Of a DNA stretch of 64,000 nucleotides, positions 12,234 to 48,277 are shown in pieces. Origin of the DNA: Actinomycetes bacterium (GTDB lineage: Bacteria > Actinomycetota > Acidimicrobiia > Acidimicrobiales > JABEUL01). Under the pieces are notes generated by a model. The model did no database searches, was not told the origin of the DNA, and worked only from the letters and a program-made list of their open reading frames with translations. Positions within the stretch are counted from its first letter, which is position 1; every line of letters begins with the position of its first letter. The stretch covers positions 2,941-66,940 of the forward strand of contig JAJYDO010000001.1 in NCBI GenBank assembly GCA_021777355.1. The letters run 5' to 3'. The translations under genes and the position numbers were made by a program.

Positions 12234-12267
12234 GTTGCCATGCAGGAAGATAGAAAGGTACACACAA

Positions 12268-28091: not shown

Positions 28092-29114
28092 ATGATATCC
28101 CGAGGTAGGATTTTCACGCTGGAATCGTGCCGGCGTTGTCGTCAGGAGGATCATGAGGTGAATAACAAGTCATTATTTGACGATCTTCGACTTGAACTCG
28201 AGCGCGGTAACTCAATGGCAGTTGGGAGCGCTTTCCACAGAGTTCTTGTGGACGAACTCACATCTGGAAACCCTTATCTAAATTCAACAGAGTTTGAGAT
28301 GCTCAGGAAGCACTACCCGAATATCATGAATGGAAGCCGCCAACTCTGGCTAAGAGACGTGTATGCAAAAAGAAGATCCTACACCCTTGAATGCATTCGG
28401 AATGATGAGCGGGCAATGGTTTTAGATGCTGGATGTGGATTTGGCTCCGACAGTTTTCTTTTTGCTTCTCTAGGCGCCTCTGTGACGGGAATCGATATTT
28501 CCGATGACCAAATTCAAATTGCCGAAAAACGAAAGAGATATTATGAAGAAGGACTTTCCCAGGAACTGGTAGTAAAGTTCGAATCTGCAAATCTCGATCA
28601 ATACCGATCAGATCTTGACAATTTGTCATTGACATGGTTTGCAAGCGTCTTGGCGGCCGTTAGCGATCAGGACTCATTGTTTTCTTGGTTAAATCAATTA
28701 ACACGGCCCGGTGGACGTGTTGTCGTGACTGACATGAACTTACGAAACCCATTCTTTTCTTCCAGAGAATGGTTACGCCGCCAGAAGGCCAAAAGGCGAA
28801 ATCCGGAATTTGCCGCTAGTGCCAATTTTGGAGCTATGTTCCGCCGGACTGGACGCGTAGGCGCTAGGTATTTTCCGAGAGAAAATTCCGATAGTCAAAA
28901 AGGATTTGTCTTTGATGATGTCCAGTTCTTTACGCCAAATACATGTGCGAAACTTATGATAAATTCAGGATTCCGCGTTGAAACGGTTGATTATTCTGCT
29001 TGTACGCCACCTCTTCCAAGTGAATCTTTGACTGTTGCGGCAGAGAGGACCACCGGTGCTGTGCCAGGATTGAGATCTTTAGGTTATTTCTATACTGTCG
29101 TCGGTTCGAAGTGA
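28092..29114 (+). CDS. Class I SAM-dependent methyltransferase
   Basis: VLDAGCGFGSDS (motif I), GIDISDDQI and RPGGRVVVTDMN. A better start may be GTG 28158, which sits 10 nt after AGGAGG (28144-28149). Confidence 0.8.
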   Translation: MISRGRIFTLESCRRCRQEDHEVNNKSLFDDLRLELERGNSMAVGSAFHRVLVDELTSGNPYLNSTEFEMLRKHYPNIMNGSRQLWLRDVYAKRRSYTLECIRNDERAMVLDAGCGFGSDSFLFASLGASVTGIDISDDQIQIAEKRKRYYEEGLSQELVVKFESANLDQYRSDLDNLSLTWFASVLAAVSDQDSLFSWLNQLTRPGGRVVVTDMNLRNPFFSSREWLRRQKAKRRNPEFAASANFGAMFRRTGRVGARYFPRENSDSQKGFVFDDVQFFTPNTCAKLMINSGFRVETVDYSACTPPLPSESLTVAAERTTGAVPGLRSLGYFYTVVGSK

Positions 29115-31915: not shown

Positions 31916-34338
31916 ACAACTCCCGAACACAAAAAGTTGCCATCGTAACGAACGTACTCTCGTCCTACCGCGTTCCTTGTTTCCAAGAGCTAATGTCGTT
32001 GTCGAAAGATCCCGTTTCTATTTTTATACTCGATAATTCGCTACACGAGCGCGAGTATATCCAACGAGGGGCGAACGCAAATATCCAAGTCACATATCTC
32101 CCAGGCAAGTCATGGCGCAGACAGCCATTCGATGATATTCATCTCAATGATATCCGTCCGATCGTGAAAGGTCGCTTTAAAATCATAATCTTGGGCGGAT
32201 GGCATGAACCTACCTACCTTATTCTTTGGCTCTGGGCACTCCTGACTCGACGTCAGACTTTATTTTGGGTGGAATCAACTTCGGCCGACAGTAGCCGTTC
32301 AGGATGGAAGGAGGCGGCAAAAAAATACCTGCTTGCCCGCACATGGGGTTGTATCGTCCCTGGAGAAGCATCACGATCTTACTGCCTGCAATTAGGGGTG
32401 GCCCCCGAGCGGATTTTCGTCGCTCCCAATGCAACAAACCGCGAGTATTTCAAGGCAAAGGCTGATGAGCTTATTCCCAAGCGGACAGACTTGCGGCGTT
32501 CCCTTGAGTTAAACCAGCAAACGGTACTCTTTGTTGGCAGGCTTGTCGAGAGACTAAAGGGAGTATCGAACCTTATTTCCGCGTGCGCGACTCTGAGTGG
32601 CTCAGAGAAGATAACTCTGGTGTTAGCTGGCGATGGTCCAGATAGATTGCGCTATGAAGCCGAAGCCAAAAATTTAGGGGTTAAATTGCGTGTAACCGGA
32701 TTTCTTACCCCAGAAAAGCTCTCTGAATATTATGCGGCAGCTGATCTTCTAGTCCTTCCGAGCCAGTCAGAACCCTGGGGATTCGTGGTAAATGAGGCTA
32801 TGGAATTTGGTCTCCCTCTTGTGATTTCACAGGCTGCCGGATGCGGCCCAGACCTTGTGAAAAATGGCATTAACGGGATTTTAGTTGATCCTGAAAATGT
32901 ATCTCAGATTGCGGACTCCATCAATCAAATCCTAGATAGTCCCAATAGAGCGAAAGAGATGGGTAGGGCTTCGCGGGAAGCAATACAAAATTTTAGTCCT
33001 CAAAAATGGGCAAACGGAGTCCTTGGAGCAGTAGAGTCATGCAAAGCCACCTCAAGCTCAGGATCATCTACCAATAAGAATTTCGAGAATAGGCGAATAT
33101 TGCTTTTCAACCCGTGGCAGCCACTAATTGGTCCCAACATCTACTTGGAAGAGCTTTTTAATGAGTGTCCTGAACTCGCTGGCCACTCTATTGTGGTCTC
33201 TCCATTCGAGAAAACTTTAGATATCTATTCAAACCTTGGATGCGAAGTGGAAATCTGGCCGGAGGCGAAGCTTATCCACCCTCCCCGTACTTGGCTGGGC
33301 ATGAGAGACTTGATGGCTGCAAACACAGTTGATTTGGTCAGAATTGTCCACAGGGTAAACCGCCTAAAGCCATCGGTGATAGTTACGAATACGGAGAATA
33401 TGTGGGCCAGTGGCATTGCTTCTAGAGTGTTAGGCATACCGCATATACAGGTGTACCACTCTATGCTTGTGGACTATCGTTTAGCTAACCACCCAAGATT
33501 TCGTAACTTTTATTTAAAATTGATGTCTCAACTTTCTACCTTCATAGTTCCAGTTTCCAATACTTTGGCTGTTTCATTAAAAAGAGGCGGGATGCCCGAA
33601 AAGAAACTACAGGTAGTGCCGAACTCGATTGCGATAAATCCTATTGTTAATTCTGAAACGAAACGCTTCCGCTTGAGCCCAACGGACACTGCAAAATTTT
33701 CTGACGTTGTTGCTGGCCTGGATGAGACTATCGAGGGGTCACCCATAATAGTCTCAGTTGGATTGTTCAGCAGCGTAAAAGGACAGGATATATTAATCGA
33801 AGCTCTACCCGACGTGATAACCGAATTTCCGAATCTTGTGTGCCTTTTGGTCGGGGACGAGATGGATATCGACGCTTCTCTACAGGGAGCCTCAATGGAT
33901 CTCGATACCCAGCGTATACATGGAGAATTTCGAGAACAACTTGTAGCGCGCATGGAAGAGCTTGGAATCGATAAAAACGTAAGATTGCTGGCGCGTTATA
34001 AAAATGTCCGCGATATTTTGCGAATGGCAGATTTGTGTGTCCAGCCATCTCGTACAGAATCGTTCGGCCGTGTCGCAGCAGAAGCGCTTCTGGAAGGAAC
34101 TCCGGTTATAGTTAGCGATGCAGGAGGCATGCGAGAAGCTGTAGGACCTGGCGGATGGATAGTAAGCACTGGAGATGTACCTTCTTTGACGCAGGCCATC
34201 CTTGAAGTACTTAGAGATTGCGAATCTGCTAGAGTTCGAGCTGAAGAGGGGCGGAGGTATGTAAGCGCACAATTTTCACCTTCAGAGTGCTCAGCAAAAT
34301 TCGTGGAGGTACTTCGGCATGCAGGATACACTTTCTAG
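31912..34338 (+). CDS. Fused double glycosyltransferase (two GT4-like GT-B modules)
   Basis: There are two EX7E motifs: EPWGFVVNEAMEFGLPLV in module 1 and ESFGRVAAEALLEGTPVI in module 2. The Ser-rich linker CKATSSSGSSTNKN separates them. Confidence 0.85.
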   Translation: MNNSRTQKVAIVTNVLSSYRVPCFQELMSLSKDPVSIFILDNSLHEREYIQRGANANIQVTYLPGKSWRRQPFDDIHLNDIRPIVKGRFKIIILGGWHEPTYLILWLWALLTRRQTLFWVESTSADSSRSGWKEAAKKYLLARTWGCIVPGEASRSYCLQLGVAPERIFVAPNATNREYFKAKADELIPKRTDLRRSLELNQQTVLFVGRLVERLKGVSNLISACATLSGSEKITLVLAGDGPDRLRYEAEAKNLGVKLRVTGFLTPEKLSEYYAAADLLVLPSQSEPWGFVVNEAMEFGLPLVISQAAGCGPDLVKNGINGILVDPENVSQIADSINQILDSPNRAKEMGRASREAIQNFSPQKWANGVLGAVESCKATSSSGSSTNKNFENRRILLFNPWQPLIGPNIYLEELFNECPELAGHSIVVSPFEKTLDIYSNLGCEVEIWPEAKLIHPPRTWLGMRDLMAANTVDLVRIVHRVNRLKPSVIVTNTENMWASGIASRVLGIPHIQVYHSMLVDYRLANHPRFRNFYLKLMSQLSTFIVPVSNTLAVSLKRGGMPEKKLQVVPNSIAINPIVNSETKRFRLSPTDTAKFSDVVAGLDETIEGSPIIVSVGLFSSVKGQDILIEALPDVITEFPNLVCLLVGDEMDIDASLQGASMDLDTQRIHGEFREQLVARMEELGIDKNVRLLARYKNVRDILRMADLCVQPSRTESFGRVAAEALLEGTPVIVSDAGGMREAVGPGGWIVSTGDVPSLTQAILEVLRDCESARVRAEEGRRYVSAQFSPSECSAKFVEVLRHAGYTF

Positions 34339-35238
34339 CCCGACGTCGGATAATTGACGGCGCCATCTATATTTGACCTTTCGCACACAAACCTCTTTGG
34401 GTTTAGTATTTACCTTTTACGAGTCTGATTTTCAAAAATACCATCTGTCGACTACTGGTTTTAAAGCTGGAGGGACACACCTCTCCAACTATTTATTTCC
34501 GTTTTATCAAAGTGGTGTTAGCAAACGAGTAATGCACAGTGAACAATTTCCCATGCCGTCACATCCGAGGCCAACCAAGATAAGACAAAGTTACAAAAGA
34601 AATCCAACCAGAAAACGAAACTCTCATTTTTTGGGACCAAGAAAAGTTATGATTTCCATACATCATCTGTTGTAATTGTCTTCGTAAAACTTTCTCAGCA
34701 TCGGATAGGAACTAATATCCTGCGGCCTAATTGCCTGCCCAACTAAAACGATGGCCCGTAAACTTGTAAAATCAAGTTGCTTAATCCTGCCACTTCAGTT
34801 TTTGCCTAAGTATTTGAACGGGCTCTTAAGAGTAAATTTAACCGCCAAAATGTCACCGGTTGTCAAGTTGCCAAAGAGGAGAAAACGTCATATAACTTTA
34901 AGGATACAAATTCATTATTGCCAGAAATCATTTAAATGCCAAGACAATGTAATTATTTGAAATATTGCTCTGCATTATTTAAATTTAAATAGAGAGTTCA
35001 CTTCACCGAATTATTTACTGAGCCAAGTTCAGAAGATTTGCAATAAATGTGCCCGCTAATTAGCCAGCTCTTACACCTTCAAAAAATTGAATGTAATTGT
35101 TGGGTTCACTTAATATTGGTAGAGAAAAAGACCAAATGTTGGATTTTCCCTAAACCCCCAAGTTTGTTTTTCCATTCTTTGTACTTGCTTCCTACAGTAA
35201 TATGGACTTAAGTTCATGGAAACTGATATGATCAGAAA

Positions 35239-35865
35239 ATGGAAATCTCGAAGTTTGAGACAAAACAAGAGGAATTCTGGGCAGGAATTTCTGGCGACGA
35301 GTACATTGAGCGCAACTGTGACTCGACAACCATTGCCGCTAACATGGCTTTATTTTCCGAAGTGCTTAGAAGAACGAAGGAAGTAAATTCTGTCTTAGAG
35401 CTTGGATCGAATATAGGATTGAACCTTCATGCAATTCACAACCTTCTGCCCCATATTGATATTTCTGCAGTCGAGATCAATGAAAAGGCGGTTGCAAGGT
35501 TAAGAAAAGAGGATTGGATTGACATTCATCATGAGTCAATTCTCACTTTTTCTCCTGAAAGGAAATGGGACTTTGTTTTTACGAAAGGAGTCCTAATACA
35601 TTTGAACCCAGATACACTTCCAAGAGTTTATGACCTTTTCCATGCGGCAAGTTCTCGCTATATTATGGTAAGCGAATATTACAGTCCACAACCAGTAGAA
35701 ATTACATATCGGGGGCATAAAGATAGGCTGTTTAAGCGCGATTTCGCAGGAGAGATACTGGACCATGCGCCTGGCTTTGAACTAGTAGATTACGGGTTTA
35801 CATATCACAGGGATCGGCACTTTCCGCAAGATGATATCAACTGGTTCTTGTTAGAGAAAATATAA
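35239..35865 (+). CDS. Small SAM-dependent methyltransferase resembling the pseudaminic-acid-biosynthesis-associated methylase family
   Basis: EEFWAGISGDEYIERN at the N-terminus and VLELGSNIGLNL as motif I. It is ~200 aa and sits 475 nt upstream of pseB. The family assignment is from memory. Confidence 0.6.
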   Translation: MEISKFETKQEEFWAGISGDEYIERNCDSTTIAANMALFSEVLRRTKEVNSVLELGSNIGLNLHAIHNLLPHIDISAVEINEKAVARLRKEDWIDIHHESILTFSPERKWDFVFTKGVLIHLNPDTLPRVYDLFHAASSRYIMVSEYYSPQPVEITYRGHKDRLFKRDFAGEILDHAPGFELVDYGFTYHRDRHFPQDDINWFLLEKI

Positions 35866-36340
35866 GAGCCTATTTGGCACGAAAAGTACTTCTCGATTTC
35901 AAAAAAGGATCTCTTTAAGGAATGGTGACGCTGGAAGCGGGAGATTCTTTAAACGATTTAGTGCGCAGTTTTGATGGCGAAGGAAATTTCTACTCTAATT
36001 TGGCACTGGTTTGAACCAGGTCAAATTAGAATTGATATTCGAATATTTTCCCACCGCAAATGCCTTTAGAGGATTCGGAAATCATTGTAGTATTTCCCCA
36101 GAAAGCACTACAGTCAAAGCAATCTGGCAACTAGCTGGTTACAGAGAGTAACAAGGAAATGCGAGGCAAAGGTGTAAAGTTTTAGTAAAGTCACTAGAAT
36201 TGCGAATATTTATGTAATGTGGAGATACAGGACTACGGGTCCAGGTATCATGTAATAATTATGATTTGTTTGTTAATAATGTATGCCTTGCATACTCGTA
36301 ATATTGAGTCTGACCTCCCTAATTTTAAGGTCAGTCAATT

Positions 36341-37324
36341 ATGAATAGTTATGAGCAGCTTGACGACCAGGTAATCTTATTAACAGGAGGTACTGGATCT
36401 TTTGGACGCGCATTTGTTAAAGAAGTACTGCAAAAATCAAGCGCGACTATTCGCATATTCAGCCGAGATGAGTTGAAACAGCATGATTTGAGCCTAGAGT
36501 TAGAAAATTATAATGACCGGATCCGTTTTTTTCTAGGTGACGTTAGAGATAAGCCAAGGCTAACACGTGCTGCTAAAGGCGCTAATATTCTGATTCACGC
36601 CGCTGCCTTGAAGCAAGTTCCGGCTTGTGAGTACAACCCATTTGAGGCAGTCCAAACAAATGTAGTTGGTGCGGAAAATGTGGTCGACGCTGCCATAGAT
36701 GCTCAAGTAGCTAAAGTAATTGCCGTTTCTACCGATAAGGCGGTAAATCCAGTAAATCTTTATGGCGCCACTAAGTTATGTGCCGAAAAAATCATAGTTC
36801 AGGGAAATGCTTACGCATCTCGAAGCGAAACAAAACTGTCGTGCGTAAGATATGGCAATGTGGTTGGATCAAGAGGTTCCGTTTTACCTTTGTTTCTTAA
36901 GCAGAAAGCATCGGGGTGCTTTACAATTACAGATACTCGTATGACTAGGTTCTGGATTACATTACCCCAAGCAGTTGAACTTGTTATTACAGCGCTAAGT
37001 ATAATGAAGGGAGGAGAAATATTCATTCCTAAAATCCCATCAATGAAAGTTACTGATTTGGCAAGGGCAATATCTCCGGATGCCAAACAAAATGTGGTTG
37101 GCATCCGTGCCGGCGAGAAACTTCATGAGATCCTTTTGACTTCTGAAGAGAGCCGCCATGCGGTGGAACGTGATGGGATGTACGTTATTTTTCCAGAGCA
37201 TCCGTGGTGGGGAGTTGATCGATCAGATGAAAATGATATTGCACTCCCGGAGGGAATGGTGTATTCAAGCGATTCAAACGAACACTGGTTGACAAGCAAA
37301 GAAATTGAAACCCTGATTCGATGA
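36341..37324 (+). CDS. pseB: UDP-N-acetylglucosamine 4,6-dehydratase (inverting)
   Basis: ILLTGGTGSFGRAF, IFSRDELKQ and YGATKLCAEK (YxxxK). It is 327 aa and the first gene of the pse operon. Confidence 0.88.
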   Translation: MNSYEQLDDQVILLTGGTGSFGRAFVKEVLQKSSATIRIFSRDELKQHDLSLELENYNDRIRFFLGDVRDKPRLTRAAKGANILIHAAALKQVPACEYNPFEAVQTNVVGAENVVDAAIDAQVAKVIAVSTDKAVNPVNLYGATKLCAEKIIVQGNAYASRSETKLSCVRYGNVVGSRGSVLPLFLKQKASGCFTITDTRMTRFWITLPQAVELVITALSIMKGGEIFIPKIPSMKVTDLARAISPDAKQNVVGIRAGEKLHEILLTSEESRHAVERDGMYVIFPEHPWWGVDRSDENDIALPEGMVYSSDSNEHWLTSKEIETLIR

Positions 37325-38415
37325 TTCCTTATGGCCATCAATCAATTAATGATGACGACATTGCAGCTGTCACGCAGATCCTAAAAGGTGACTGGCTTAC
37401 TCAAGGACCAGCAGTTGAGGAATTCGAAGAAGCCTTATGCAGCTACACTGACGCTAAGTTTGCCGTTGTTTTTTCAAGTGGAACGGCGGCATTACATGCT
37501 GCTTGTGCGGTCGCCGGATTTGGGCCAGGAAACAGTATCTATACTTCGGCATTAACCTTTTCAGCCAGTGCGGCATGCGCCCTTTACGTTGGAGCTGAAC
37601 CTCGCTTTCTTGATATTTCTCCGGACACATTGAATATGGATTTAAGTCTTCTGCCTCCGAATGCCGATGGCCTAATTGCAGTTCATTATGCAGGGCTCCC
37701 TATTGACTTTGCAAAAATGCCCTATCGACCTGGAATAATAATTGAAGATGCATCTCATGCACTCGGCGCCATTGGGAAGAATGGCCCTATTGGTAATTGT
37801 GCGGATTCTGATATGTGTACTTTTTCCTTCCATCCCGTGAAAGCTATCACCACCGGCGAAGGTGGCGCGGTGACTACTAATTCAAAGGCTCTGGCTAATT
37901 CACTCAGAACTTTTAGAAGTCACGGAATTGTTCATAAACAAGAACAAGGTAATTGGTTCTATGAAGTCGATTCAATCGGTTTTAATTACCGTTTAACTGA
38001 TATTCAATCGGCTCTTGGCCTAAGCCAGCTAAAGAGATTGGATCGATTTATCGAAAGGCGCAACGAAATTGCGAGTCGCTATAGAGAGTTACTCCAAGAT
38101 CTTCAGGTGACTTGCCCCCCAAGTGCTCCAGTAGGCTCAACTCACGCCTATCATCTATTCCCGGTTAGGGTTAAAAATCGGCGAGCGATATTTGACTATT
38201 TGAGAAATGCTGGAATCGGTGCTCAAGTGCATTATATTCCTCTTTACAAGCATCCTTTATATGCTCGCACAGGAAGCCAGTTCCAGTTTCCTTCAACCGA
38301 AACAGTTTATGGCGAGCTACTCTCGTTGCCTATTTTTCCAGATTTAACAGATGCAGATCAGGATATAGTGATTGAAGTCCTTGGCAAAGCTTTGAATGAG
38401 GTACCTGATAAATGA
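37321..38415 (+). CDS. pseC: UDP-4-amino-4,6-dideoxy-N-acetyl-beta-L-altrosamine transaminase (DegT family)
   Basis: MIPYGHQSINDDDI...LTQGP N-terminus. The PLP-lysine block is FSFHPVKAITTGEGG, with the Lys codon at 37840-37842. ATGA overlap with pseB. Confidence 0.85.
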   Translation: MIPYGHQSINDDDIAAVTQILKGDWLTQGPAVEEFEEALCSYTDAKFAVVFSSGTAALHAACAVAGFGPGNSIYTSALTFSASAACALYVGAEPRFLDISPDTLNMDLSLLPPNADGLIAVHYAGLPIDFAKMPYRPGIIIEDASHALGAIGKNGPIGNCADSDMCTFSFHPVKAITTGEGGAVTTNSKALANSLRTFRSHGIVHKQEQGNWFYEVDSIGFNYRLTDIQSALGLSQLKRLDRFIERRNEIASRYRELLQDLQVTCPPSAPVGSTHAYHLFPVRVKNRRAIFDYLRNAGIGAQVHYIPLYKHPLYARTGSQFQFPSTETVYGELLSLPIFPDLTDADQDIVIEVLGKALNEVPDK

Positions 38416-38894
38416 ATGAGTTAACCCTTCATCTAGCTTCTGCAAAAGACGCCAGTTTAATATTCGGTATACGCAATCTGCCTGAGAGTATCAAGTTTAG
38501 TGGAACCGGGCAGCCCGTGACAGAAAACGAGCACTTTGTTTGGTTTGAAAATTTACTGAAGGATAAAGGTCGCAGACTTTGGATTTTAAACGACGGCATT
38601 GATGATATTGGATTCGTCAGAGTTGATTTGCTAGATGAGGCCGTGGGTCAGATTGGCCGGGTAAGTATTGGAATCAAAAGAGAGAGTCGCGGACATAATT
38701 ATGCGAGTCAAGCCCTCGGATTACTAACTTTGCAGCTTAAGGATATGCGTGACTTTTACGTTGAGAGATTAAGAGCTTTTGTGCATTTCGACAACATAGC
38801 TTCAGTAAAGACATTTAGAAAAGCCGGTTATGCAGAAGTTAACACTGAAAATCCATTTGTTACTTTCGAGATCCTATTGAGTAATGAGAGTTAA
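38412..38894 (+). CDS. pseH: GNAT N-acetyltransferase, PseH-like
   Basis: IFGIRNLPESIKF, EHFVWFENLL and NIASVKTFRKAGY. ATGA overlap with pseC, and the position between pseC and pseG is as expected. Confidence 0.75.
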   Translation: MNELTLHLASAKDASLIFGIRNLPESIKFSGTGQPVTENEHFVWFENLLKDKGRRLWILNDGIDDIGFVRVDLLDEAVGQIGRVSIGIKRESRGHNYASQALGLLTLQLKDMRDFYVERLRAFVHFDNIASVKTFRKAGYAEVNTENPFVTFEILLSNES

Positions 38895-39897
38895 TACGAC
38901 CAAGTCTGGGACACTATGGCTTAGAACAGGTTCATCACCCGATATTGGTTTAGGGCATCTTATGCGTACTTTAGCAATTGCAGAAAGCGCGCATAGGCAA
39001 AACCTGAGATGCTGCTTTGTAATTGACAACAATACCGATGTGGATCGTATACGAGCCGTTGCTGACAACGTTCAAACTGTATATTCAGTTAATGATGATA
39101 TGTGGACATCCTCAATATCGTCGGGAGATTTTGTCGTGTTTGACGGTTATGAATATAGTGGAGACAATTTTCGCCACGCTAATGATGCCGAAGCAGTCGT
39201 AGCTTGCTTTGACGATTTCGGGATCTCTTTCCCTGCCGGGGTTCTAGTTATTGATATTAGCGAAGCTGGTGGAGAAGGTCCCGTGGACAAGGATCATCAA
39301 AACTCTAGACATTCTAATCGGCTTGTAGGCCCTCATTACGCTCCGATTCGGAGCGAATTTTTTCCGTTCCGCCGCCACAGGGAAGATCCAATTGAAACAA
39401 TCGTAATAAGCCTCGGTGGTTCCGACATGGGAACGCTCACTCAGGAAGTTACACGTTCAATTCTCCATTTGAAAGATAAATATAACGTAGTAGCGATAAT
39501 CAACCAAGACAAGCTTGCCGGAAAGGAAGCAGACTGGCCAACTGATGTGGAAGTTATTTACTCGCCCCCTAGAGTCGGAGACATTTTTGATCGAGCCGAT
39601 TTAGGAATATGCACTGCAAGCACTACTGCTCTAGAAATGGCCTTCATGGGAATTCCAACATTACACTTGCAAGCGACTAATAATCAGAAGGCGATGGCCA
39701 ACATGCTTACAAAATATCAAATATCATATTCACTTGGAACCAATTTGGGAGATCTAGAACAAATTATTTACATGATGAATGAAAGTGCGATTCGATCGTC
39801 ATTGAGTAGGCGAGCATTGGAGACCATTGATGGAATGGGAGCCGAGAGGATATTAAAAACAATGGTCGAAGCACACCCTAATGTAAGGCGGGCATAG
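38884..39897 (+). CDS. pseG: UDP-2,4-diacetamido-2,4,6-trideoxy-beta-L-altropyranose hydrolase, PseG-like
   Basis: RTGSSPDIGLGHLMRTLAIAE N-terminus, SLGGSD, and a GT28-C-like fold length. It overlaps pseH by 11 nt. Confidence 0.78.
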   Translation: MRVNTTKSGTLWLRTGSSPDIGLGHLMRTLAIAESAHRQNLRCCFVIDNNTDVDRIRAVADNVQTVYSVNDDMWTSSISSGDFVVFDGYEYSGDNFRHANDAEAVVACFDDFGISFPAGVLVIDISEAGGEGPVDKDHQNSRHSNRLVGPHYAPIRSEFFPFRRHREDPIETIVISLGGSDMGTLTQEVTRSILHLKDKYNVVAIINQDKLAGKEADWPTDVEVIYSPPRVGDIFDRADLGICTASTTALEMAFMGIPTLHLQATNNQKAMANMLTKYQISYSLGTNLGDLEQIIYMMNESAIRSSLSRRALETIDGMGAERILKTMVEAHPNVRRA

Positions 39898-39900
39898 AAA

Positions 39901-40980
39901 TTGTCAAATGGAGATTTAATTTCAACGTGCGTGAAGATTGGAAGCAGCCGGGTTGGACTCGGTGAGGAGGCCTACATTATTGCCGAGCTTTCTGGAAATC
40001 ATCTTGGAAAACTTGACAATGCTATTGAGTTACTTCGCGCAGCTAAAAATGCTCGGGCTAACGCGGCCAAACTCCAGACATACACAGCTGACTCCATGAC
40101 AATAGATTCAGATGCTGATATATTTAAGCTACCCGAAACTTCGCTTTGGAAAGGTTACACTTACTACCAGCTATACAAAGAAGCTGCAACACCGGCTGAG
40201 TGGCTTCCAAAACTTAAAAAAGAAGCAGTTCGGCTGGGAATAGATCTTATTTCATCTCCGTTCGACAATGAGGCCGTTCGTATTCTAGATGAACTTGACT
40301 TTCCTGCTCTGAAGATTGCTTCGTTTGAAGTGGTTGACCTTAAATTGATTCAGAGTGCGGCATCCACCGGACGGCCAGTAATTATTTCAACAGGTATGGC
40401 CACGCTGGCAGAAGTTGATGCTGCCGTAAATGCCGCAAGATCAGTAGGCGACGGGGGAATAATTTTACTTTATGCCAGCAGCGCATACCCTGCGCCCACT
40501 TCCGACATGGCATTAAGGACTATCCCGCATATGATTAAGACGTGGAATTTGCCGGTTGGGTTGTCAGATCACACACAAGGAATACATGCGGCAGTCGCGG
40601 CAGTCGCTCTTGGTGCCAATGTTATTGAAAAACACTTGACTCTGCGACGATCAGATGGCGGGCCTGATGCAGAGTTTTCGATGGAGCCAGACGAATTTAA
40701 AAAGCTGGTGTCGTCAGTGCGTGAAGTCGAAAGCACATTAACGCGAGTTCGATATGGACCATCTCCTGGCGAAATAGTAAGCCTCAACTTTCGTCGCTCG
40801 CTTTTCGTCGTAAAGGATATGGAAGCAGGAGAAAAATTTAGCGAACAGAATGTACGCTCGATTCGGCCTGGTTACGGATTGCCGCCCAAGGAATGGAACC
40901 AAATTGAGGGCAGAGTTGCACGTGGTGCAATAAAGCGGGGAACCCCTCTTCAGTGGGATTTAGTAGGTGATATTGGTTAA
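39901..40980 (+). CDS. pseI: Pseudaminic acid synthase
   Basis: YIIAELSGNHLGKLDNAIELLRAAKNARANAAKLQTYTADSMT carries the QTY variant typical of PseI. A C-terminal SAF domain is present. The start is TTG 39901 or GTG 39931. Confidence 0.85.
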   Translation: MSNGDLISTCVKIGSSRVGLGEEAYIIAELSGNHLGKLDNAIELLRAAKNARANAAKLQTYTADSMTIDSDADIFKLPETSLWKGYTYYQLYKEAATPAEWLPKLKKEAVRLGIDLISSPFDNEAVRILDELDFPALKIASFEVVDLKLIQSAASTGRPVIISTGMATLAEVDAAVNAARSVGDGGIILLYASSAYPAPTSDMALRTIPHMIKTWNLPVGLSDHTQGIHAAVAAVALGANVIEKHLTLRRSDGGPDAEFSMEPDEFKKLVSSVREVESTLTRVRYGPSPGEIVSLNFRRSLFVVKDMEAGEKFSEQNVRSIRPGYGLPPKEWNQIEGRVARGAIKRGTPLQWDLVGDIG

Positions 40981-42805
40981 TCCTTCTCCTGAATCGTCAC
41001 CCGCTGGACTAATAATTGCTGCTGGAAGTGTGCTTCGACTAGATGAACTAGACCAGGTAATTGCAAATATTCCTGACACTTTAGAGATTATTGGATGGTG
41101 TGCATATCTTTCCCAAACGACAAGCTCGTGGGCGGAAAATACATTTTCTGTGAAATGCTTGGATTTAAATGCAATTTCAGGTGAAATTGATGAAAGCATT
41201 TGTGCAAAAGCAAGATCAGCAATGGATCTTTTTGGCAGTCAAGATGACCCAAAGCTCGAGGCTTTCGTCTTAGAGAAGCTCTATTCCGAAGCCGAAGAAT
41301 TAGTTCTGGCAACCGAAATGGTAAAACTGGTGAGAAGCCAGTTGAATTCGAAGGACCATAAGATTTATTTCCTGGGTAATGATAATAATGGATCCACCGC
41401 AGTAAAAACTGAGCTAGAAGATTTCTGCAATCTTGAGATACTTGAGCTTCCACCTAAATCTTCGCGTGACTTTAGGACTCGAGTAAATAAATATGTCCAG
41501 GGTCTCAGACTGGAAGGCAGAATCAGTCATGCAGTACCCGACCTGATTGAAAGAACCGATAATGAGTGGCGTTTTAGGACCTCATTGCCGCGGCAGTCAT
41601 TTTGGACGGAAAAGAAAAGTTATTATTCATTACCCAAGGGAGAGATATGTTTGCTGTCCTCCTACGCAAATAATTCAAGATCTATCTTAAACTTAAGTTC
41701 TTTATTTCCTCGCAATACTCACTGGATAGTGACTACTCTGTCAGCAAGACGAGCATTACCAAAGTCAGCCAAATGGTCTTGGCTTTGGGCGCATGCTAAC
41801 AAATCGCATCAGTGGTCCTGGCCTTTGCTGCCAACAGACAAGACTGAGATAAGTGCTCCTAAGTCAGACAGTGGACTAGGGAATGGTTGGCCAGCCAACT
41901 CCCAAACGTTATCACGCTGGGAAGAAATCGACAGGGCGTTGACCGCTCGAATGATGTCATGTTGGGACAATTATTTAGAGAAATATAGCCCAAGACTAGT
42001 TGTCGTGGCGAACCAATGGGACATTGAGGGAGCTTTTGCGCTCCGAGCAAAAGAGATGGGTATTGCGGTACTGCAAGTTTTTCATGGGGCAACAGGAGGA
42101 CATTTGTACCGTGAACACAAAGTAATTGGAGACTGCATGGTTATTCCTGGAAAGTACTGGGCCGACACGCTTCCAGTCGTTTCACGGCATAAAGCTCTCG
42201 TTGTAGGATCGACTCCTGACATCGCTAATAGCACCCCAGATGTTCCACGGCGCTTGACATTTTTCTCTACATTTATTTCGAACCAATCTCGCATGGTGGC
42301 AGAAGAAGAATATAAGTCTATGGTCAAGGCAATCTGTCATATTCGGAGCGTTTCAGGCTGGTTAGTGGTAATGCGCCCTCATCAACTTGAAAACCCTTCT
42401 CTATTTTTAGAATATTGGCGAAATAGCACCACCGATGATCCTCCGATTATACTTTCAGCACATAAAGAAACTCTCATTGAAGCAGTCAAGAGTACCGGAG
42501 TTGCACTTACGTTCCCTTCTTCAATACTTCTTGCTTGTGCATCAGGTGGAGTGCGTGCAACGATACCTGGGTGGATACCTTTCGAGTGGCGTGAGGGTGT
42601 AGAGTCAGTGTCTAATGGAAAATTGGCCGAATTTGCTTCTAATCCCGAAGATATAGGAAAGATTCTGGAGGCGCAGATTCTGGCTGCCGAACATGATGGC
42701 CCAATTGATTCTGGCGATTCTGACTTACTGGCAAGATTTGGAGTTGGACACGACGAATTCCGTGACTGGATATCGTCGACAACTGCAGGATCTAAAAGCA
42801 AGTAA
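40967..42805 (+). CDS. 612-aa orphan protein, possible GT-B-like nonulosonic-acid transferase
   Basis: The ORF overlaps the pseI 3' end by 14 nt. It has no TM or signal sequence. The C-terminal half has alternating beta/alpha character, with VFHGATGG and VVMRPHQLENP blocks that recall the HP motif of capsule/sialyl-type transferases. This is a weak inference. Confidence 0.65.
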   Translation: MILVNPSPESSPAGLIIAAGSVLRLDELDQVIANIPDTLEIIGWCAYLSQTTSSWAENTFSVKCLDLNAISGEIDESICAKARSAMDLFGSQDDPKLEAFVLEKLYSEAEELVLATEMVKLVRSQLNSKDHKIYFLGNDNNGSTAVKTELEDFCNLEILELPPKSSRDFRTRVNKYVQGLRLEGRISHAVPDLIERTDNEWRFRTSLPRQSFWTEKKSYYSLPKGEICLLSSYANNSRSILNLSSLFPRNTHWIVTTLSARRALPKSAKWSWLWAHANKSHQWSWPLLPTDKTEISAPKSDSGLGNGWPANSQTLSRWEEIDRALTARMMSCWDNYLEKYSPRLVVVANQWDIEGAFALRAKEMGIAVLQVFHGATGGHLYREHKVIGDCMVIPGKYWADTLPVVSRHKALVVGSTPDIANSTPDVPRRLTFFSTFISNQSRMVAEEEYKSMVKAICHIRSVSGWLVVMRPHQLENPSLFLEYWRNSTTDDPPIILSAHKETLIEAVKSTGVALTFPSSILLACASGGVRATIPGWIPFEWREGVESVSNGKLAEFASNPEDIGKILEAQILAAEHDGPIDSGDSDLLARFGVGHDEFRDWISSTTAGSKSK

Positions 42806-42935
42806 TTGTGAACAACTTTGAATTAATTTTGTATCATTTGTGACTTGTCAAAGGTGCACCAGGACCAAGAACCAGGAAGTCAGATCTAAAATAGAGTGAG
42901 TATTTAGACTGAAGAAAAGGGCAAAGTATTTAAGC

Positions 42936-43169
42936 ATGACTAGTTTCGAGTTCCAAGATAGTTTACTGAGTGAAAGTAATTTTGATTCCTGCATACTTCT
43001 CAACTTTCGATGTCACGCTATAAGTCTTTTTGCACGACAATCAAAGATAATCATTCAACCAGATGGAGAGTTGACGTTTTCACGGTTTGAAATTCAAAAA
43101 GCACAAGGTGTCCTGCAAGAACGAATTTTCCTAGAGTCGAAGCGTAAAATTCGGGGAGTTAGATTTTGA
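42936..43169 (+). CDS. Hypothetical small protein (77 aa)
   Basis: It is the only ORF in the 360-nt spacer, and it overlaps the TTG start of the next gene by 4 nt. It has no recognisable motif. Confidence 0.3.
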   Translation: MTSFEFQDSLLSESNFDSCILLNFRCHAISLFARQSKIIIQPDGELTFSRFEIQKAQGVLQERIFLESKRKIRGVRF

Positions 43170-44308
43170 GCGGATGGAAAATTCCGTTGATTACCCCTGA
43201 AGTAGATGATCAGGATGCACGCGCTGTCTACGACGTAGTCTTAGCAGGGGATGTGGCCGTCGGTCGCGAGCAGGAGCATTTTGAGAGAATCGTTACCGAT
43301 ATCACGGGGGCTAAATTTGGGGTTTCTTTATCAAGCGGTACCGCAGCTCTACATTTGGCGCTTCTCGCGTTGGATGTGGGCCCAGGAGATGAAGTTATAG
43401 TCCCCGATTTGACATATATTGCCTCAGCCAACCCGGTCCGTTACGTAGGTGCGGCACCTGTTCTTGTCGACATCAAACCAGATGACGGAAATGTGGACGT
43501 AGACATTCTTAACGATTTTATAGAGGAGCGGGTCAGAAGAAACTATATTCTCCCAAAAGCAATTATTGCCGTTCATGTTTTAGGAGAACCATGTGACATG
43601 GAGAAGTTATTGGCTATATCGAAAAATTACGGAATTCCCATTATCGAAGATGCCGCCCAATCTTTTGGGGCAACTTACGGGGCAGGCAAATTAGCTTATA
43701 AAGCGACTGGGTCCATTGGAAAGTTCGGAGTGCTTTCTTTCAGTGGAAACAACATAGTTACCACAGGCGGAGGTGGCATGTTGCTGACTAATGACGGAGC
43801 TCTTGCTTCAAAGGTAAGACATCTCTCCACCCAAGGCAAGCTCGCCAACAATAACTTTGACCACAATGTAGTAGGCTATAACTACCGACTTTCCAATATT
43901 GCTGCCACACTTGGAATTGTCCAGGCAAAGAAATTATCTGCTTTTATCAAAGCTAAACGCTTAATTTACTACCGTTATAGAGAGAATCTGGAACTCATAA
44001 GTAACATTAGGATGATCGCCATAAACCCAATCAACAATGGATCCTGTTGGCTCTCGACAGCCGTATTTCAAGATAAAAAAACTCGAATTAAAGTCGAGGC
44101 AAGCTTGAGATCTAATGGCATTGAGTGCAGTACACTCTGGACGCCAATCCACAAGCAAGCTCCATATATTGAAGCACCCTTTGTAGGTGCAGGCGTTTCC
44201 GTCGACTTGGCAGAAAGATCTCTAAGTCTGCCGAGTTCCACTTCCCTGAGAGAATCGGAGCAGAAGGAAGTTATCGACACAATTATTTCGACGCTTGTTC
44301 ACATTTAG
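43166..44308 (+). CDS. DegT/DnrJ/EryC1-family sugar aminotransferase-like protein lacking the conserved PLP lysine
   Basis: LSSGTAALHLALLAL, GDEVIVPDLTYIASAN and IIEDAAQSFGA. The lysine block reads LSFSGNNIVTTGGGGM, with AAC (Asn) at 43751-43753 where the family has Lys. Confidence 0.85.
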   Translation: MSGWKIPLITPEVDDQDARAVYDVVLAGDVAVGREQEHFERIVTDITGAKFGVSLSSGTAALHLALLALDVGPGDEVIVPDLTYIASANPVRYVGAAPVLVDIKPDDGNVDVDILNDFIEERVRRNYILPKAIIAVHVLGEPCDMEKLLAISKNYGIPIIEDAAQSFGATYGAGKLAYKATGSIGKFGVLSFSGNNIVTTGGGGMLLTNDGALASKVRHLSTQGKLANNNFDHNVVGYNYRLSNIAATLGIVQAKKLSAFIKAKRLIYYRYRENLELISNIRMIAINPINNGSCWLSTAVFQDKKTRIKVEASLRSNGIECSTLWTPIHKQAPYIEAPFVGAGVSVDLAERSLSLPSSTSLRESEQKEVIDTIISTLVHI

Positions 44309-44812
44309 CGGCTAAACACCATGGTTGTTATTTGACGGCATAAATAGTAGAAAATCTAGTCATAGTTTCTGAAAAACAGCTATTTCGGATGAAGAATTCA
44401 AAAGCTACCCAACTATTTAGCCGAGTGTTGTGCGAGCTTTAACTTGATGTTTTTCACCAAAAGTGTTTTTCGTAGTCAAATAGATTGATTCGAATTTCAA
44501 TTAACTAACTCGCAGGCATGAGCTAATCAGATATGTCATCTTTGTAGCAAATCGGGCTAATTTTCGACTTTTTGCAGCATTGGCCCTCCGTCTGAAAATT
44601 TGACATAAATTGGTACCAAGGTTCGAAACGGGTATCAACCACTAAAGTGCAATGACTACCAGGCAAAATTTTGGCTATTCGACCAATTTATGAATATATG
44701 CACATAAATATTTAGAAATATCTTTTAAGGTCGATATAGTATTTGGGTTATGCAATTGGCCTGAATAGGCCAAGTCCTGATTTAAAGATGGTAAAGATAG
44801 GACAATATCAAA

Positions 44813-46870
44813 TTGAAGCAAAGAGAAAACCGCGGAGAGAAACAAGGTAGTTTTCGGTTTCATTTATTTCTTATTTTGACATCAGTCTCACTGATCTTAT
44901 CCGGTTGCATCGGAACTGTTGGCGGGCTAACTTGGAATAATAATCCATTTTCGCTAGTAATAACTGTATCTAACCCTACATCTACTAATTTGTCGGACTA
45001 TCCTGTCCAGGTAAAAATAACCGGACAAAACTTTACCTCATTAAGCGGTGCTTATGGCGCTCCGGAATTAGAAGTTGCAGACTTTTTAACCGCCAAACAG
45101 GCGAACTATTGGGTTCAAGAGTGGAACGTTATTTCTGAAGTAGGCATTGTCTGGATAAAATGCCCGGAAATTGAAGGAAATGGAGATGCATATTTTCTTA
45201 TCGCCAAAGCTGCCAGCGAAGCAAATTACGGAAGCGGGCAAAACGTATTTCCGTTTTTTGAAGATGGAACAAATCCAGCTCTTTGGAGCAATACTGCCGG
45301 TGGCGGACCCTCTGTCACTACAGGTATGCAAAGTTACATCAATATAACAAGTAATTCGACCGTAGTTGACGACGGGAACTACAACGCAAATCCTGCCATG
45401 GTAAAACTTCCAAATGGAGATATCTTGCTCACATATGTCAGTGGAACAATGCATGTGAGTGTTCCATACGTGATGTTAGTCGAAAGTAAAGATAATGGCC
45501 GGACTTGGAGCACTCCAAGAATGATTTTCGACACAAGCGGAATGGACCCGGTAATTTTCGAAATTCCATCCGGAGGATTGCAGTTGTGTTTTGACAAGAG
45601 CCAGTCAGGAACCGGGTTTATTGGCATGGCATGTATGACTTCTAACGACAATGGAGTTACCTGGACACTTCCACAATTTATGACCTCAAACCCGTACGAA
45701 CTTTTTGCAGTGGACCAGGTTGTGACGGTTGGATCCACCTTATACGCAAGTGCATATGGACAACTTAGCTCACCAACCGGCCCTGTTAGCGTGAACTTGT
45801 GGGTCTCTTATGATTTTGGAAATACCTGGTCAATACTCTCAAATATTGTAACATCACCTTCAGATCCCACTTGCAACGAATCTGGACTTGCATATCTTGG
45901 AGCTCAAGAATTTGTTGTGGTTCTCAGATCCGGATCAAACTCTACTACCTATGAAAGGTTTAGCAACGATATGGGAGTTACGTGGGGGCCGTTAATTGAC
46001 ATTGGAAATCAAGTTGGAGTATTGCAATATCCCACACTTCAACACTTAGGCAACAATCTCGTTCTCACTGCTCGTGAAGCTTATGAACGGGTGCCTGGAA
46101 CCTATAGTACTTCCACTCGTGAAACGGCAATGTTTATCTCCAGTGACGAAGCCAAGAGTTTCAGTGACCCAACCCTAGTAGATAGATACACGGGCCAACA
46201 AATTGATGGGGGCTACGGACAGTTGATTATTGTCAACAATAATCAAGGCTTGTTAACCTATTATGCGAATCTTCACACGCTACGACAGCCCTCAATTCAA
46301 TTCGCTACAATTAATTTTGGCCAATATCCCCTTGCGGATCAGGGTGTAGGAATTTCTCAGTACTTCGAAAATGGTTTCGCATCCCGGTCATTTTCACCGA
46401 TAAACGGACCATACCAGGTGTTCGCAAGCTCAATTGGCTTTGACGCAGTTAACGGAAATCAATTGGAACTTAGTTTATTGGGTGAAAGCCAGAATAATTT
46501 GAACACAGCCGTAACAATTGGCACATTATTGACACCCTCGGGGAGTGTATATCCATCGAACAGCATCGAATTTTCAAATGGATCTCAGCTAGGATCAACA
46601 CTTGCAGCTTGGCAGCCTTCGGTCAATTACGATTTTTCGGTTACTGTAAATCCTAGTTCAGATTCGATCATGGCGCAGGTTTACAACAGCGACTTAGTTC
46701 CCGAAGGAACATCTTTTTCGGGTGCAATTCAATCAGGAACTAATGGATCGCTAACTGGGATAACTCTAGGAAGCGGAACTGCAGCAGTCGATACTTTGAG
46801 CGACGTTCCTTGGATCTTCGTCACACCTTATGCTCAATCGCCGCCCCAGGTTGCGATCTCTCCTGATTAA
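44813..46870 (+). CDS. Predicted lipoprotein with DUF2341-like N-domain and BNR/Asp-box (sialidase-like) beta-propeller
   Basis: The signal peptide has the lipobox LSGC, with the Cys32 codon at 44906-44908. There are four SxDxGxTW Asp-boxes (SKDNGRTWS, SNDNGVTWT, SYDFGNTWS, SNDMGVTWG) and one degenerate box (SSDEAKSFS). YPVQVKITG...VWIKCPEI resembles DUF2341. Confidence 0.8.
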   Translation: MKQRENRGEKQGSFRFHLFLILTSVSLILSGCIGTVGGLTWNNNPFSLVITVSNPTSTNLSDYPVQVKITGQNFTSLSGAYGAPELEVADFLTAKQANYWVQEWNVISEVGIVWIKCPEIEGNGDAYFLIAKAASEANYGSGQNVFPFFEDGTNPALWSNTAGGGPSVTTGMQSYINITSNSTVVDDGNYNANPAMVKLPNGDILLTYVSGTMHVSVPYVMLVESKDNGRTWSTPRMIFDTSGMDPVIFEIPSGGLQLCFDKSQSGTGFIGMACMTSNDNGVTWTLPQFMTSNPYELFAVDQVVTVGSTLYASAYGQLSSPTGPVSVNLWVSYDFGNTWSILSNIVTSPSDPTCNESGLAYLGAQEFVVVLRSGSNSTTYERFSNDMGVTWGPLIDIGNQVGVLQYPTLQHLGNNLVLTAREAYERVPGTYSTSTRETAMFISSDEAKSFSDPTLVDRYTGQQIDGGYGQLIIVNNNQGLLTYYANLHTLRQPSIQFATINFGQYPLADQGVGISQYFENGFASRSFSPINGPYQVFASSIGFDAVNGNQLELSLLGESQNNLNTAVTIGTLLTPSGSVYPSNSIEFSNGSQLGSTLAAWQPSVNYDFSVTVNPSSDSIMAQVYNSDLVPEGTSFSGAIQSGTNGSLTGITLGSGTAAVDTLSDVPWIFVTPYAQSPPQVAISPD

Positions 46871-47476: not shown

Positions 47477-48277
47477 TTGATGATAAACTACCCTGGCATG
47501 GACACTGTAAATCAAGGCGAAAGAATTATCGCTGTTTTGCAGGCCCGAATGACTTCAACAAGACTTCCCGGGAAAGTCCTAATGCCCTTAGCTGGAGCGC
47601 CACTGTTATCTCGAGTCATTGAGCGCGTTTCGCGAATTTCTGGTTTAGACGGGATTGTCGTAGCTATTCCCAGTGGAGATAAGCAACTTCCGATAGTGGA
47701 ACTTGTGGCGGGCATTCCAGAAGTTGACCTAGTTTCCGGATCGGAAGACGATGTTCTTGACCGCACTTTATATGCTGCAACCTCGGCAGGCGCTACTGCC
47801 ATTGTTAGAATTACCACAGATTGCCCATTGATAGATCCAGAAGTAAGTAGTGCTGTACTGGGCGCATTTCGCAAGCTGGGGATTTCATATGCCAGAACCG
47901 CTATTTCACATGGTTATCCTATGGGATTTGATACTGAGGTGATTTCAGTTGACGCTCTGAAAATTGCTGCAAGCGAGTCCAGTGACCCGTACGAACGAGA
48001 GCATGTTACCCCTTTTATATGGAGACAACCTGAGCGGTTTGAGTCAATTGTTTTATCATGCATGCCAGATCGAAGACACTGGCGGCTTACAGTAGATACA
48101 CCTGAAGATTATCGACTCGTATCTACAGTTTACGACGAACTAGCTAACGTTTCGCCTAGCTTTGGGATGAGAGAACTAGATGCTCTTTTTAAAAGACGAC
48201 CCGAACTTCTTGAACTGAACGCTGGCACCGCATCAACTCCATACATTGGTTTACCCTCTTCATATGCATCCTCGTAA
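47477..48277 (+). CDS. SpsF-type cytidylyltransferase (CTP_transf_3 family)
   Basis: IIAVLQARMTSTRLPGKVL, VRITTDCPLIDP, YPMGFDTEV, REHVTPFI and RLTVDTPEDY are blocks typical of SpsF/FlmC-like nucleotide-sugar cytidylyltransferases. The start is uncertain (TTG 47477 or ATG 47498). Confidence 0.82.
   Translation: MMINYPGMDTVNQGERIIAVLQARMTSTRLPGKVLMPLAGAPLLSRVIERVSRISGLDGIVVAIPSGDKQLPIVELVAGIPEVDLVSGSEDDVLDRTLYAATSAGATAIVRITTDCPLIDPEVSSAVLGAFRKLGISYARTAISHGYPMGFDTEVISVDALKIAASESSDPYEREHVTPFIWRQPERFESIVLSCMPDRRHWRLTVDTPEDYRLVSTVYDELANVSPSFGMRELDALFKRRPELLELNAGTASTPYIGLPSSYASS

Follow-up and report, generated by a model that had tools for sequence, protein, structure and literature searches.

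A GT-B protein encoded beside pseI, from a rare family and with a predicted role in nonulosonic acid transfer

The window analysed here is a stretch of 64,000 nucleotides (nt) from an Acidimicrobiales bacterium (assembly GCA_021777355.1, contig JAJYDO010000001.1, positions 2,941 to 66,940 of the forward strand). It carries a polysaccharide island in which the genes for synthesis of pseudaminic acid (Pse), a nonulosonic acid, run directly into a gene of 612 codons, here called the target gene. Its product belongs to a rare, uncurated and unnamed family of sugar-transferase type, about 600 amino acids (aa) long and two-lobed (GT-B). We are highly confident that the target protein is a GT-B transferase, and within the cluster it is the best candidate for attaching a sialic-acid-like sugar, an activity that is predicted. 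The fuller assignment, to a cytidine monophosphate (CMP)-pseudaminate transferase that acts on the lipid-linked repeat unit of a Wzx/Wzy-dependent surface polymer, is given an even chance. The gene and its predicted domains are as follows.

Target gene: 40967..42805, + strand, intact open reading frame (ORF) of 612 aa from GTG 40967 or 610 aa from TTG 40973
Extra N-terminal Rossmann-like α/β domain: 40967..41584, + strand, residues 1-206 (DSSP elements E14-18 to H202-206 of the model)
GT-B N-terminal Rossmann domain: 41645..42202, + strand, residues ~227-412 (model, family motifs, invariant H373)
GT-B C-terminal, nucleotide-binding Rossmann domain: 42251..42697, + strand, residues ~429-577 (model, invariant H472 and S518)

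Translation of 40967..42805 from its GTG start ran without internal stops. The pseI ORF extends from 39901 to 40980, stop included, and is therefore overlapped by 14 nt, as an original prediction made from this DNA alone had stated. In the public annotation this protein (P0001, 610 aa) begins two codons later, at TTG 40973, which shortens the overlap to 8 nt; from either candidate start the target gene overlaps the pseI stop. Comparison with P0002, a 69%-identical orthologue from an Acidimicrobiales metagenome-assembled genome (MAG), gave a pN (nonsynonymous) of 0.18, a pS (synonymous) of 0.59 and a dN/dS of ~0.17. Purifying constraint was seen in all three thirds of the gene and was strongest over the last 280 residues. 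These data confirm that the target is a real gene under purifying selection. Two further statements of the original prediction, that the protein belongs to no standard family and lacks membrane segments, agreed with our searches. Neither whole nor in pieces did it match a Pfam or NCBIfam model, even at E<=10, nor did it have a significant sequence match in the PDB, where a search with the family profile likewise returned nothing meaningful. No transmembrane segment was predicted because the highest Kyte-Doolittle 19-residue mean, 1.53, stayed under the threshold of 1.6. The 360-nt gap 3′ of the gene held no convincing terminator, and when 34300-44900 was scanned for promoters and terminators the counts were no higher than shuffling would lead one to expect.

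The name of orphan that the protein had been given holds for word-indexed searching only. With the single protein as query, that search found just 2 proteins, the target itself and P0002, and with an alignment of 62 family sequences it found nothing beyond the target and one orthologue. When 1.84 billion cluster representatives were searched exhaustively with HMMER, 97 clusters passed E<=1e-3, and 36 of these also passed E<=1e-30. With few exceptions the proteins measure 560-650 aa; they align over their full length with the window protein at 21-27% identity, and every member with a readable source name is a 'hypothetical protein' from metagenomes or MAGs. Matches in genomes placed family members in Desulfarculaceae, another 'delta proteobacterium', Chloroflexota, Nitrospiraceae, Thermodesulfovibrionales, Acidobacteriota, Thermoanaerobaculia, Blastocatellia and Acidimicrobiales; the phyla and orders that hold the family are thus Acidobacteriota, Nitrospirota, Chloroflexota, Desulfobacterota and Acidimicrobiales. 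When the family hidden Markov model was run against the window proteins, the target was the sole match. The conservation, AlphaFold and per-member results given below rest on the 62 sequences mentioned above.

AlphaFold (AF2) modelled the target protein with a pLDDT (predicted local distance difference test) of 87.7 and a pTM (predicted template modelling score) of 0.90; this run superseded one with two sequences, whose pLDDT was 31.8. The model contains two Rossmann-like α/β domains (227-412 and 429-577) followed by a terminal helix at residues 595-610, which is the architecture of the GT-B superfamily. Foldseek returned 123 PDB matches at E<=1e-3, and the best 50 of the 123 were all GT-B proteins, among them TagF (3l7k, E 1.3e-8, ~510 aligned columns), the polysialyltransferase 5wcn with CDP (cytidine diphosphate; E 2.1e-7), MurG and SenB. 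The expectation of a nucleotide-sugar-transferase fold was thereby borne out. The original prediction had also read the C-terminal ~270 residues as one GT-B half; the fold is indeed GT-B, but it spans residues ~227-610, the C-terminal ~270 residues do not make up one half of it, and the N-terminal domain (1-206) had not been foreseen at all. This domain aligns across the family (W44, G89, D198) and may serve in acceptor or partner binding. In the viral structure library BFVD, the target model matched proteins of the glycosyltransferase (GT) families GT1 and GT4, the top matches being two viral proteins of 585 and 545 aa annotated as 'cytidylyltransferases'. A degenerate cytidylyltransferase in the N-terminal domain had no support at profile level, where hhalign to the local CTP_transf_3 protein gave 0.06% probability.

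Within the 62 sequences, P342, H373, H472 and S518 are invariant, and further residues, among them E354, A361, G374, D389, G395, W398, R470, P473 and T519, reach a conservation of at least 90%. The two invariant histidines sit one in each Rossmann domain. Six short motifs of the family have the following counterparts in the window.

N-domain motif: family FFSSYxNNSR, window LLSSYANNSR
N-domain motif: family LVVxANQWGIEG, window LVVVANQWDIEG
N-domain motif with invariant H373: family IPVLQxMHGVLGG, window IAVLQVFHGATGG
C-domain motif: family RLTFFS, window RLTFFS
C-domain HP motif with invariant H472: family RxHPxENP, window RPHQLENP
C-domain motif with invariant S518: family FRSTV, window FPSSI

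Two of these had been picked out in the original prediction, namely VLQVFHGATGG (residues 368-378) and LVVMRPHQLENP (residues 466-477). Both are present and hold H373 and H472, although they lie 98 and not ~110 residues apart. The second had been likened to the xxHP motif of capsule-type and sialyl-type transferases. The family does carry a true HP motif at this place, whereas the window protein reads PHQ without the proline. On the acceptor side, the D/E-D/E-G motif of sialyltransferases may have a counterpart in WGIEG (family) and WDIEG (window), with one acidic residue directly before the glycine; E354 and G355 of this element are at least 90% conserved.

Individual members gave weak matches to known models. 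Those to recognised transferase families were BFO_1060_trans (NF046086; 20 of the 62 members, best E 6.9e-7), TIGR04396 (19 members, best E 1.9e-6), the alpha-2,8-polysialyltransferases (PF07388, A-2_8-polyST; 4 members, best E 4.4e-5), the LIC12162 family (TIGR04331; 4 members, best E 0.00041), Capsule_synth (PF05159; 3 members below threshold, best E 3.7e-5) and Glyphos_transf (PF04464; 2 members, best E 0.0045); for the last two the Pfam gathering threshold was not reached and the window protein had no match. More generic models were also hit, Glyco_trans_4_4, an N-terminal model of GT4, by 12 members (best E 0.00013) and DUF6716, a putative glycosyltransferase, by 11 (best E 2e-6). Matches to BFO_1060_trans and TIGR04396 mapped to the C-terminal Rossmann domain, the former covering residues ~441-571 of the members and thus the domain that bears the HP and ST motifs. 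The flagellin-modifying Maf model (PF01973, MAF_flag10) matched none of the 62 members and not the window protein either. PseG was considered as a relative and set aside, its hhalign probability of 6.5% reflecting merely generic resemblance between GT-B C-domains.

The genes around the target supply a plausible donor. We give here those that bear on it, together with others that are taken up below.

pseB-pseC-pseH-pseG-pseI string: 36341..40980, + strand, abutting or overlapping ORFs that end in the target gene
PseB: TIGR03589, 448.6 bits, above cut-off
PseC: TIGR03588, 434.9 bits, above cut-off
PseH-type acetyltransferase of the GNAT (GCN5-related N-acetyltransferase) group: PseH model, below cut-off
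PseG-like GT-B hydrolase: PseG model, below cut-off
PseI: 39901..40980, + strand, TIGR03586, 422.1 bits, above cut-off
Methylase associated with Pse biosynthesis: 35239..35865, + strand, TIGR03587, 275.6 bits against a cut-off of 112
Cytidylyltransferase of the CTP_transf_3 family: 47477..48277, + strand, PF02348, E 5.5e-21, below the PseF equivalog cut-off
Second NeuB-family synthase: 3-1061, + strand, extending past the left window edge, 41% identical to PseI at 39901
LegC-like aminotransferase: 43166-44308, + strand, next gene after the target, TIGR04181, 324.9 bits against a cut-off of 420 bits
PglF-like membrane 4,6-dehydratase: 50012-51946, + strand
Tetratricopeptide repeat (TPR) protein of 934 aa: 29111-31915, with a single N-terminal membrane anchor

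The Pse pathway of the window is complete. The cytidylyltransferase at 47477..48277 is likely the CMP-nonulosonate (PseF-type) synthetase that would supply the donor, and its homologues adjoin PseG and PseI in locus L017 and the Pse methylase in L010. Every further glycosyltransferase recognised in the window is of family GT4, which leaves the target as the sole non-GT4 protein of glycosyltransferase type recognised there. GT4 enzymes use nucleoside diphosphate (NDP)-sugars, and among recognised proteins the target is therefore the one candidate for a CMP-type donor site.

We then compared 20 loci, the window included, that had at least ~4 kb of flanking DNA. A search for related loci with a 10-sequence subset of the family alignment contributed to this set, which was annotated by tblastn with the window proteins and by precomputed Pfam matches; three distant members (P0045, P0060 and P0083) lie on short contigs that were uninformative about context. 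A NeuB-family synthase lay within 10 kb of the family gene in 14 of the 20 loci (the window, L001 as a pseudogene, L003, L004, L006, L009, L010, L017, L026, L028, L029, L033, L035 and L036), often with CTP_transf_3 and PseG- or PseH-type genes. Going by these loci, homologues are not found mainly in genomes lacking nonulosonate genes, an outcome that would have spoken against the original prediction. Sets of Pse type (PseG, PseH and PseI) adjoin the family gene in L029, L033 and L017, and in L029 the order of PseG, PseI, PseH and family gene, with overlaps, mirrors that of the window.

A number of observations, on the donor, on the neighbours and on the protein itself, weigh against the pseudaminyltransferase assignment. 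As regards the donor, Pse is not the only one conceivable in the window. The synthase at 3-1061 is matched by SpsE, PseI and NeuB structures alike, at about 1e-52 to 1e-57, and the genome may therefore make two nonulosonic acids. Together with the LegC-like aminotransferase directly downstream of the target and the PglF-like dehydratase at 50012, it brings in an acid of legionaminic (Leg) type as a serious alternative donor. L001 (1146-2042 and 1-916 of contig JABEUL010000207.1, from the Acidimicrobiales MAG), the one locus with a close orthologue, points the same way. Its pseI has decayed: it lacks the first 58 codons and contains 2 frameshifts as well as at least 10 in-frame stops. This pseudogene stands directly upstream of an intact, constrained target orthologue, which argues against a strict dependence on pseI. 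Divergently upstream, a hydrolysing 2-epimerase of LegG type is encoded (5xvs, E 1.2e-39), so that the locus looks like a replacement of Pse by Leg. By analogy with what is described for Tannerella strains, this state would fit a nonulosonate transferase that outlived such an exchange.

In two further loci a different protein competes for the role. A sister family of ~590 aa, with SH..PG and HP motifs of its own, is encoded at L028 5242-6996 and L035 2946-4730; the two proteins are 25.6% identical to each other, and hhalign related them to the target family with 91.7% probability (E 7.7e-7). In L035 the sister gene directly follows CTP_transf_3, NeuB and Epimerase_2 genes and is closer to NeuB than is the target-family gene. 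In L028 it lies within a set of CTP_transf_3, NeuB and ABC-transporter genes, one of two NeuB sets in that locus. In both loci the role of nonulosonate transferase falls more obviously to the sister protein, which would leave the target-family member there to attach a second nonulosonate residue or to work with another donor. In the window no gene of the sister type is present. The sister family is itself another uncurated candidate family of nonulosonate transferases. L028 also holds both Pse-like and Leg-like gene sets, and L035 holds NeuB with Epimerase_2, two arrangements that would suit a Leg-type donor. The same fold and CMP-releasing chemistry could accordingly be put to use with another CMP-activated acid, of Leg type here and possibly 3-deoxy-D-manno-octulosonate (Kdo) in diderm relatives. 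Diderm phyla make CMP-Kdo, and the loci without NeuB come from such phyla. Set against this, the window gene is coupled to pseI whereas the other synthase is 40 kb distant, Pse-type sets stand next to the family gene in L029, L033 and L017, and the window contains no LegG. We therefore regard another CMP-activated acid as an unlikely donor for the target, though deserving of attention.

As regards the neighbours, those most constantly found beside the family are not pse genes. The most constant of all is a GT4 gene directly downstream of the family gene; the others are a methyltransferase like that at 28092 of the window, an N-anchored TPR protein of ~930 aa, a double GT4 like that at 31912, Wzy and an amidotransferase of AsnB type. 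A sulfotransferase of PF13469 adjoins the family gene in L007, L026, L027, L028, L031, L033 and L035 and overlaps it in four of them; its recurrence hints at a sulfated glycan. Linkage of the family to GT4, methyltransferase and sulfotransferase genes is at least as tight as its linkage to NeuB. Moreover, no NeuB gene was found in the available DNA of six of the 20 loci (L005, L007, L008, L012, L027 and L034). Additional Pfam scans of L005, L007, L008 and one ORF of L012 revealed no nonulosonate-pathway gene among the ORFs scanned, and showed GT2, GT4, methyltransferases, a sulfotransferase and the ABC-transporter protein Wzt instead. Such findings would be expected if the target were an ordinary member of a polysaccharide cassette that uses a UDP- or GDP-sugar (uridine or guanosine diphosphate) or, like TagF, a CDP-alditol as donor, its closeness to pse genes being due to a shared island. 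The presence of TagF among the best structural matches and the matches of members to Glyphos_transf and to the GT4 N-terminal model also fit. In contrast, no gene for CDP-glycerol or CDP-ribitol synthesis was recognised among the window ORFs scanned. The matches to recognised transferases are to families of nonulosonic-acid, sialyl and Kdo type and to TagF, all with CMP-releasing donors, and what repeatedly remains are the generic GT4 N-domain models and DUF6716. NeuB in 14 of 20 loci is far above chance for 1-2 genes per genome, the whole genome being the background of this comparison. On balance, a cassette enzyme of this ordinary kind appears improbable.

As regards the protein itself, the proline of the HP motif is replaced by glutamine in the window protein, which keeps the histidine; the orthologue P0002 retains the motif (RPHPVENP). 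All matches of members to known transferase families are far under the curated cut-offs and the window protein has none. For NF046086, with a cut-off of 200 bits, members scored 14-29 bits (best 28.7) and the window protein gave no match at E<=10; for TIGR04396, with a cut-off of 125 bits, P0002 reached 10.7 bits and the window protein again gave no match. Such scores indicate kinship at the level of the superfamily and not membership. Finally, the top Foldseek matches are uridine diphosphate-N-acetylglucosamine (UDP-GlcNAc) 2-epimerases (3beo, 9.8e-9; TM-scores normalised to the target ~0.61-0.64), and the fold by itself does not separate transferases from epimerases that share it. The target might thus be an epimerase or hydrolase like NeuC, LegG or PseG that works within nonulosonate biosynthesis and transfers nothing. 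One member does match Epimerase_2 (PF02350) weakly, at E 0.0096, and by eye the H-P and SS-type motifs of the C-domain occur in epimerases too (YHPPTLDLEN and GNSSSG in the LegG-like protein of L001). PF02350 is not matched by the window protein itself, and hhalign of the family profile with a bona fide Epimerase_2 protein gave 0.7% probability, against the high value obtained for the sister family with its HP motif. In addition, the Pse pathway of the window already has all its steps, L001, L028 and L035 contain true LegG or Epimerase_2 genes alongside the family members, and the six loci without NeuB have no nonulosonate pathway nearby for an epimerase to serve. An epimerase is consequently very improbable.

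All in all, a CMP-pseudaminate transferase is the reading that we favour. The original prediction is upheld as far as the GT-B fold, the weak BFO_1060_trans matches and the NeuB context go, but Pse as the donor is a step that we infer, and the loci without NeuB count against it. The scheme that follows, including donor, acceptor, stereochemistry and the parts played by individual residues, is likewise a proposal. The target would be a soluble cytoplasmic GT-B enzyme of the group whose donors release CMP, comprising sialyl-, Kdo- and Pse/Leg-transferases and enzymes of TagF type. Its C-terminal Rossmann domain would hold a CMP-nonulosonic acid by the CMP part, using H472, R470, E475 and S518/T519. 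The simplest donor would be CMP-pseudaminic acid, the joint product of PseB-C-H-G-I and the cytidylyltransferase at 47477. Within the GT-B pair, the N-terminal Rossmann domain would bring three residues into the cleft, the invariant H373 and the almost invariant E354 and D389, which may position and activate the acceptor hydroxyl. The acceptor could be a lipid-linked repeat unit assembled by the neighbouring GT4 enzymes; once finished, this unit would pass to the island's Wzx, Wzy and Wzz proteins for flipping and polymerisation. Further, we tentatively suggest, with somewhat less than even confidence, that the protein could be a founding member of a new Pse/Leg-transferase family at CAZy level, with a three-domain build, which occurs across uncultivated Acidobacteriota, Nitrospirota, Chloroflexota, Desulfobacterota and Acidimicrobiia and accompanies a conserved cassette of GT4, methyltransferase, sulfotransferase and TPR proteins for a methylated or sulfated surface polymer containing a nonulosonate.

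Other features of the window complete the picture of the island. With the exception of the sulfotransferase, of which none was seen, the window has the full set of constant neighbours, arranged in another order. Three of them form a trio, the methyltransferase (28092), the ~930-aa TPR protein and the 808-aa double GT4 (31912), which occupies 28092-34338 on the + strand, accompanies the family across phyla and recurs in L004, L007, L026, L029 and L033. The 934-aa TPR protein was considered as a rival Pse transferase of FlmG type and gained no support: hhalign showed no relation to the family, its PDB matches were to TPR only and it has no recognisable catalytic domain. The window contains no flagellar genes. 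The LegC-like and PglF-like genes (43166-44308 and 50012-51946) are parts of a second diamino-sugar pathway, of bacillosamine or Leg type, in the same island. Between the LegC-like gene and the cytidylyltransferase lies a gene (44813-46870, + strand) whose 685-aa product has a hydrophobic anchor or signal sequence at its N-terminus and also contains a DUF2341 domain and a BNR/sialidase-like β-propeller. This protein may be a glycosidase specific for nonulosonates, or else an enzyme that processes the polymer. Two convergent genes of PF01663 (type I phosphodiesterase / nucleotide pyrophosphatase) also lie inside the polysaccharide island, at 24430-25842 (+ strand) and 25849-27423 (− strand). 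A small protein encoded at 55464-56081 (+ strand) has an N-terminal hydrophobic segment and a C-terminal sortase-type motif, LAXTG/LAVTG (weak NCBIfam matches), which, taken with DUF4012 at 53613, is consistent with a monoderm actinobacterium as host. By eye, 1716-13833 appears to consist of housekeeping genes for the biosynthesis of amino acids (ilvB/N/C, serC, aspartate aminotransferase, serA and leuA types) with a UDP-sugar dehydrogenase and a decarboxylase-like short-chain dehydrogenase/reductase, and this block separates the NeuB-type gene at the left edge from the main island.

The step of attachment matters since the transferase is the least predictable one of Pse and Leg pathways. To our knowledge, very few enzymes that attach these sugars have been described, namely the Maf proteins, FlmG, KpsS1 (GT118) and the BFO_1060-type proteins of Tannerella. 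About 100 clusters, a confident model, clear invariant residues and a recurrent position next to pseI or neuB make the family a concrete target for expression and assay. If active, it would provide a new tool for the chemo-enzymatic synthesis of nonulosonate glycans and would allow surface-glycan loci to be annotated in several poorly known environmental phyla. Should another donor be used, what remains would be a further GT-B enzyme of uncharacterised kind from a polysaccharide island.

Among known systems, the BFO_1060/Tanf_01245 proteins (NF046086) resemble the target family in being predicted GT-B proteins, in the HP motif of their C-domain and in being encoded next to nonulosonate genes. 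BFO_1060 is the strain FDC 92A2 counterpart of Tanf_01245 in Tannerella forsythia; this family is genetically implicated in the transfer of Pse and Leg there, as knockouts of Tanf_01245 and of its homologue from a Leg strain are reported to show that both are required for a complete O-glycan, and both proteins carry the sialyltransferase motifs D/E-D/E-G and HP (PMC5420450), as defined by Freiberger 2007 in the form quoted there. Pse- and Leg-type versions of this protein are close relatives, which parallels the pair formed by the window and L001. Unlike the target, the Tannerella proteins are ~445 aa long, have a DXD motif and lack the extra N-terminal domain of ~200 aa (PMC5420450), and the similarity of BFO_1060 to family members is confined to about 60-125 residues. 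In Herbaspirillum, genes for a 'surface carbohydrate biosynthesis protein' and a LIC12162-family protein directly follow the neu genes (PMC6679464). TIGR04396 and TIGR04331 are putative, uncharacterised transferases found beside neu and pse genes (PMC6679464), as the target family is, but they differ in length and architecture (a model of 427 residues against ~600 aa).

The polysialyltransferases of GT38 (PF07388, 5wcn) share with the target the GT-B fold and the histidine of the C-domain HP motif, and use a CMP-sugar donor. GT38 and other HP-motif sialyltransferases are only ~10% identical to the target, in which D/E-D/E-G is approximated (GIEG in the family, DIEG in the window); the target has, in addition, its N-terminal domain, and the window protein has no Pfam match. 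In TagF (PF04464, 3l7k) each Rossmann domain carries one of the two essential histidines, a layout that resembles that of H373 and H472. The leaving group of TagF is also CMP, whereas its donor is CDP-glycerol and its product a phosphodiester, and no CDP-glycerol genes were seen in the window. KpsS1 (GT118) is cited in PMC12887879 as a proven retaining Pse5Ac7Ac transferase. Like the β-Kdo transferases KpsC and KpsS (PF05159), it takes a CMP-activated ulosonic acid as donor, as is proposed for the target, although KpsS1, KpsC and KpsS structures were absent from the best 50 of the 123 Foldseek matches. The flagellin pseudaminyltransferases Maf (PF01973) and FlmG would have the CMP-Pse donor and the cytoplasmic location in common with the target, which differs from them in having neither a PF01973 match nor a TPR domain and in belonging to another fold family. 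Compared with all these systems, the target belongs to a distinct, uncurated family of a known kind of enzyme, set apart by an unexplained extra N-terminal domain.

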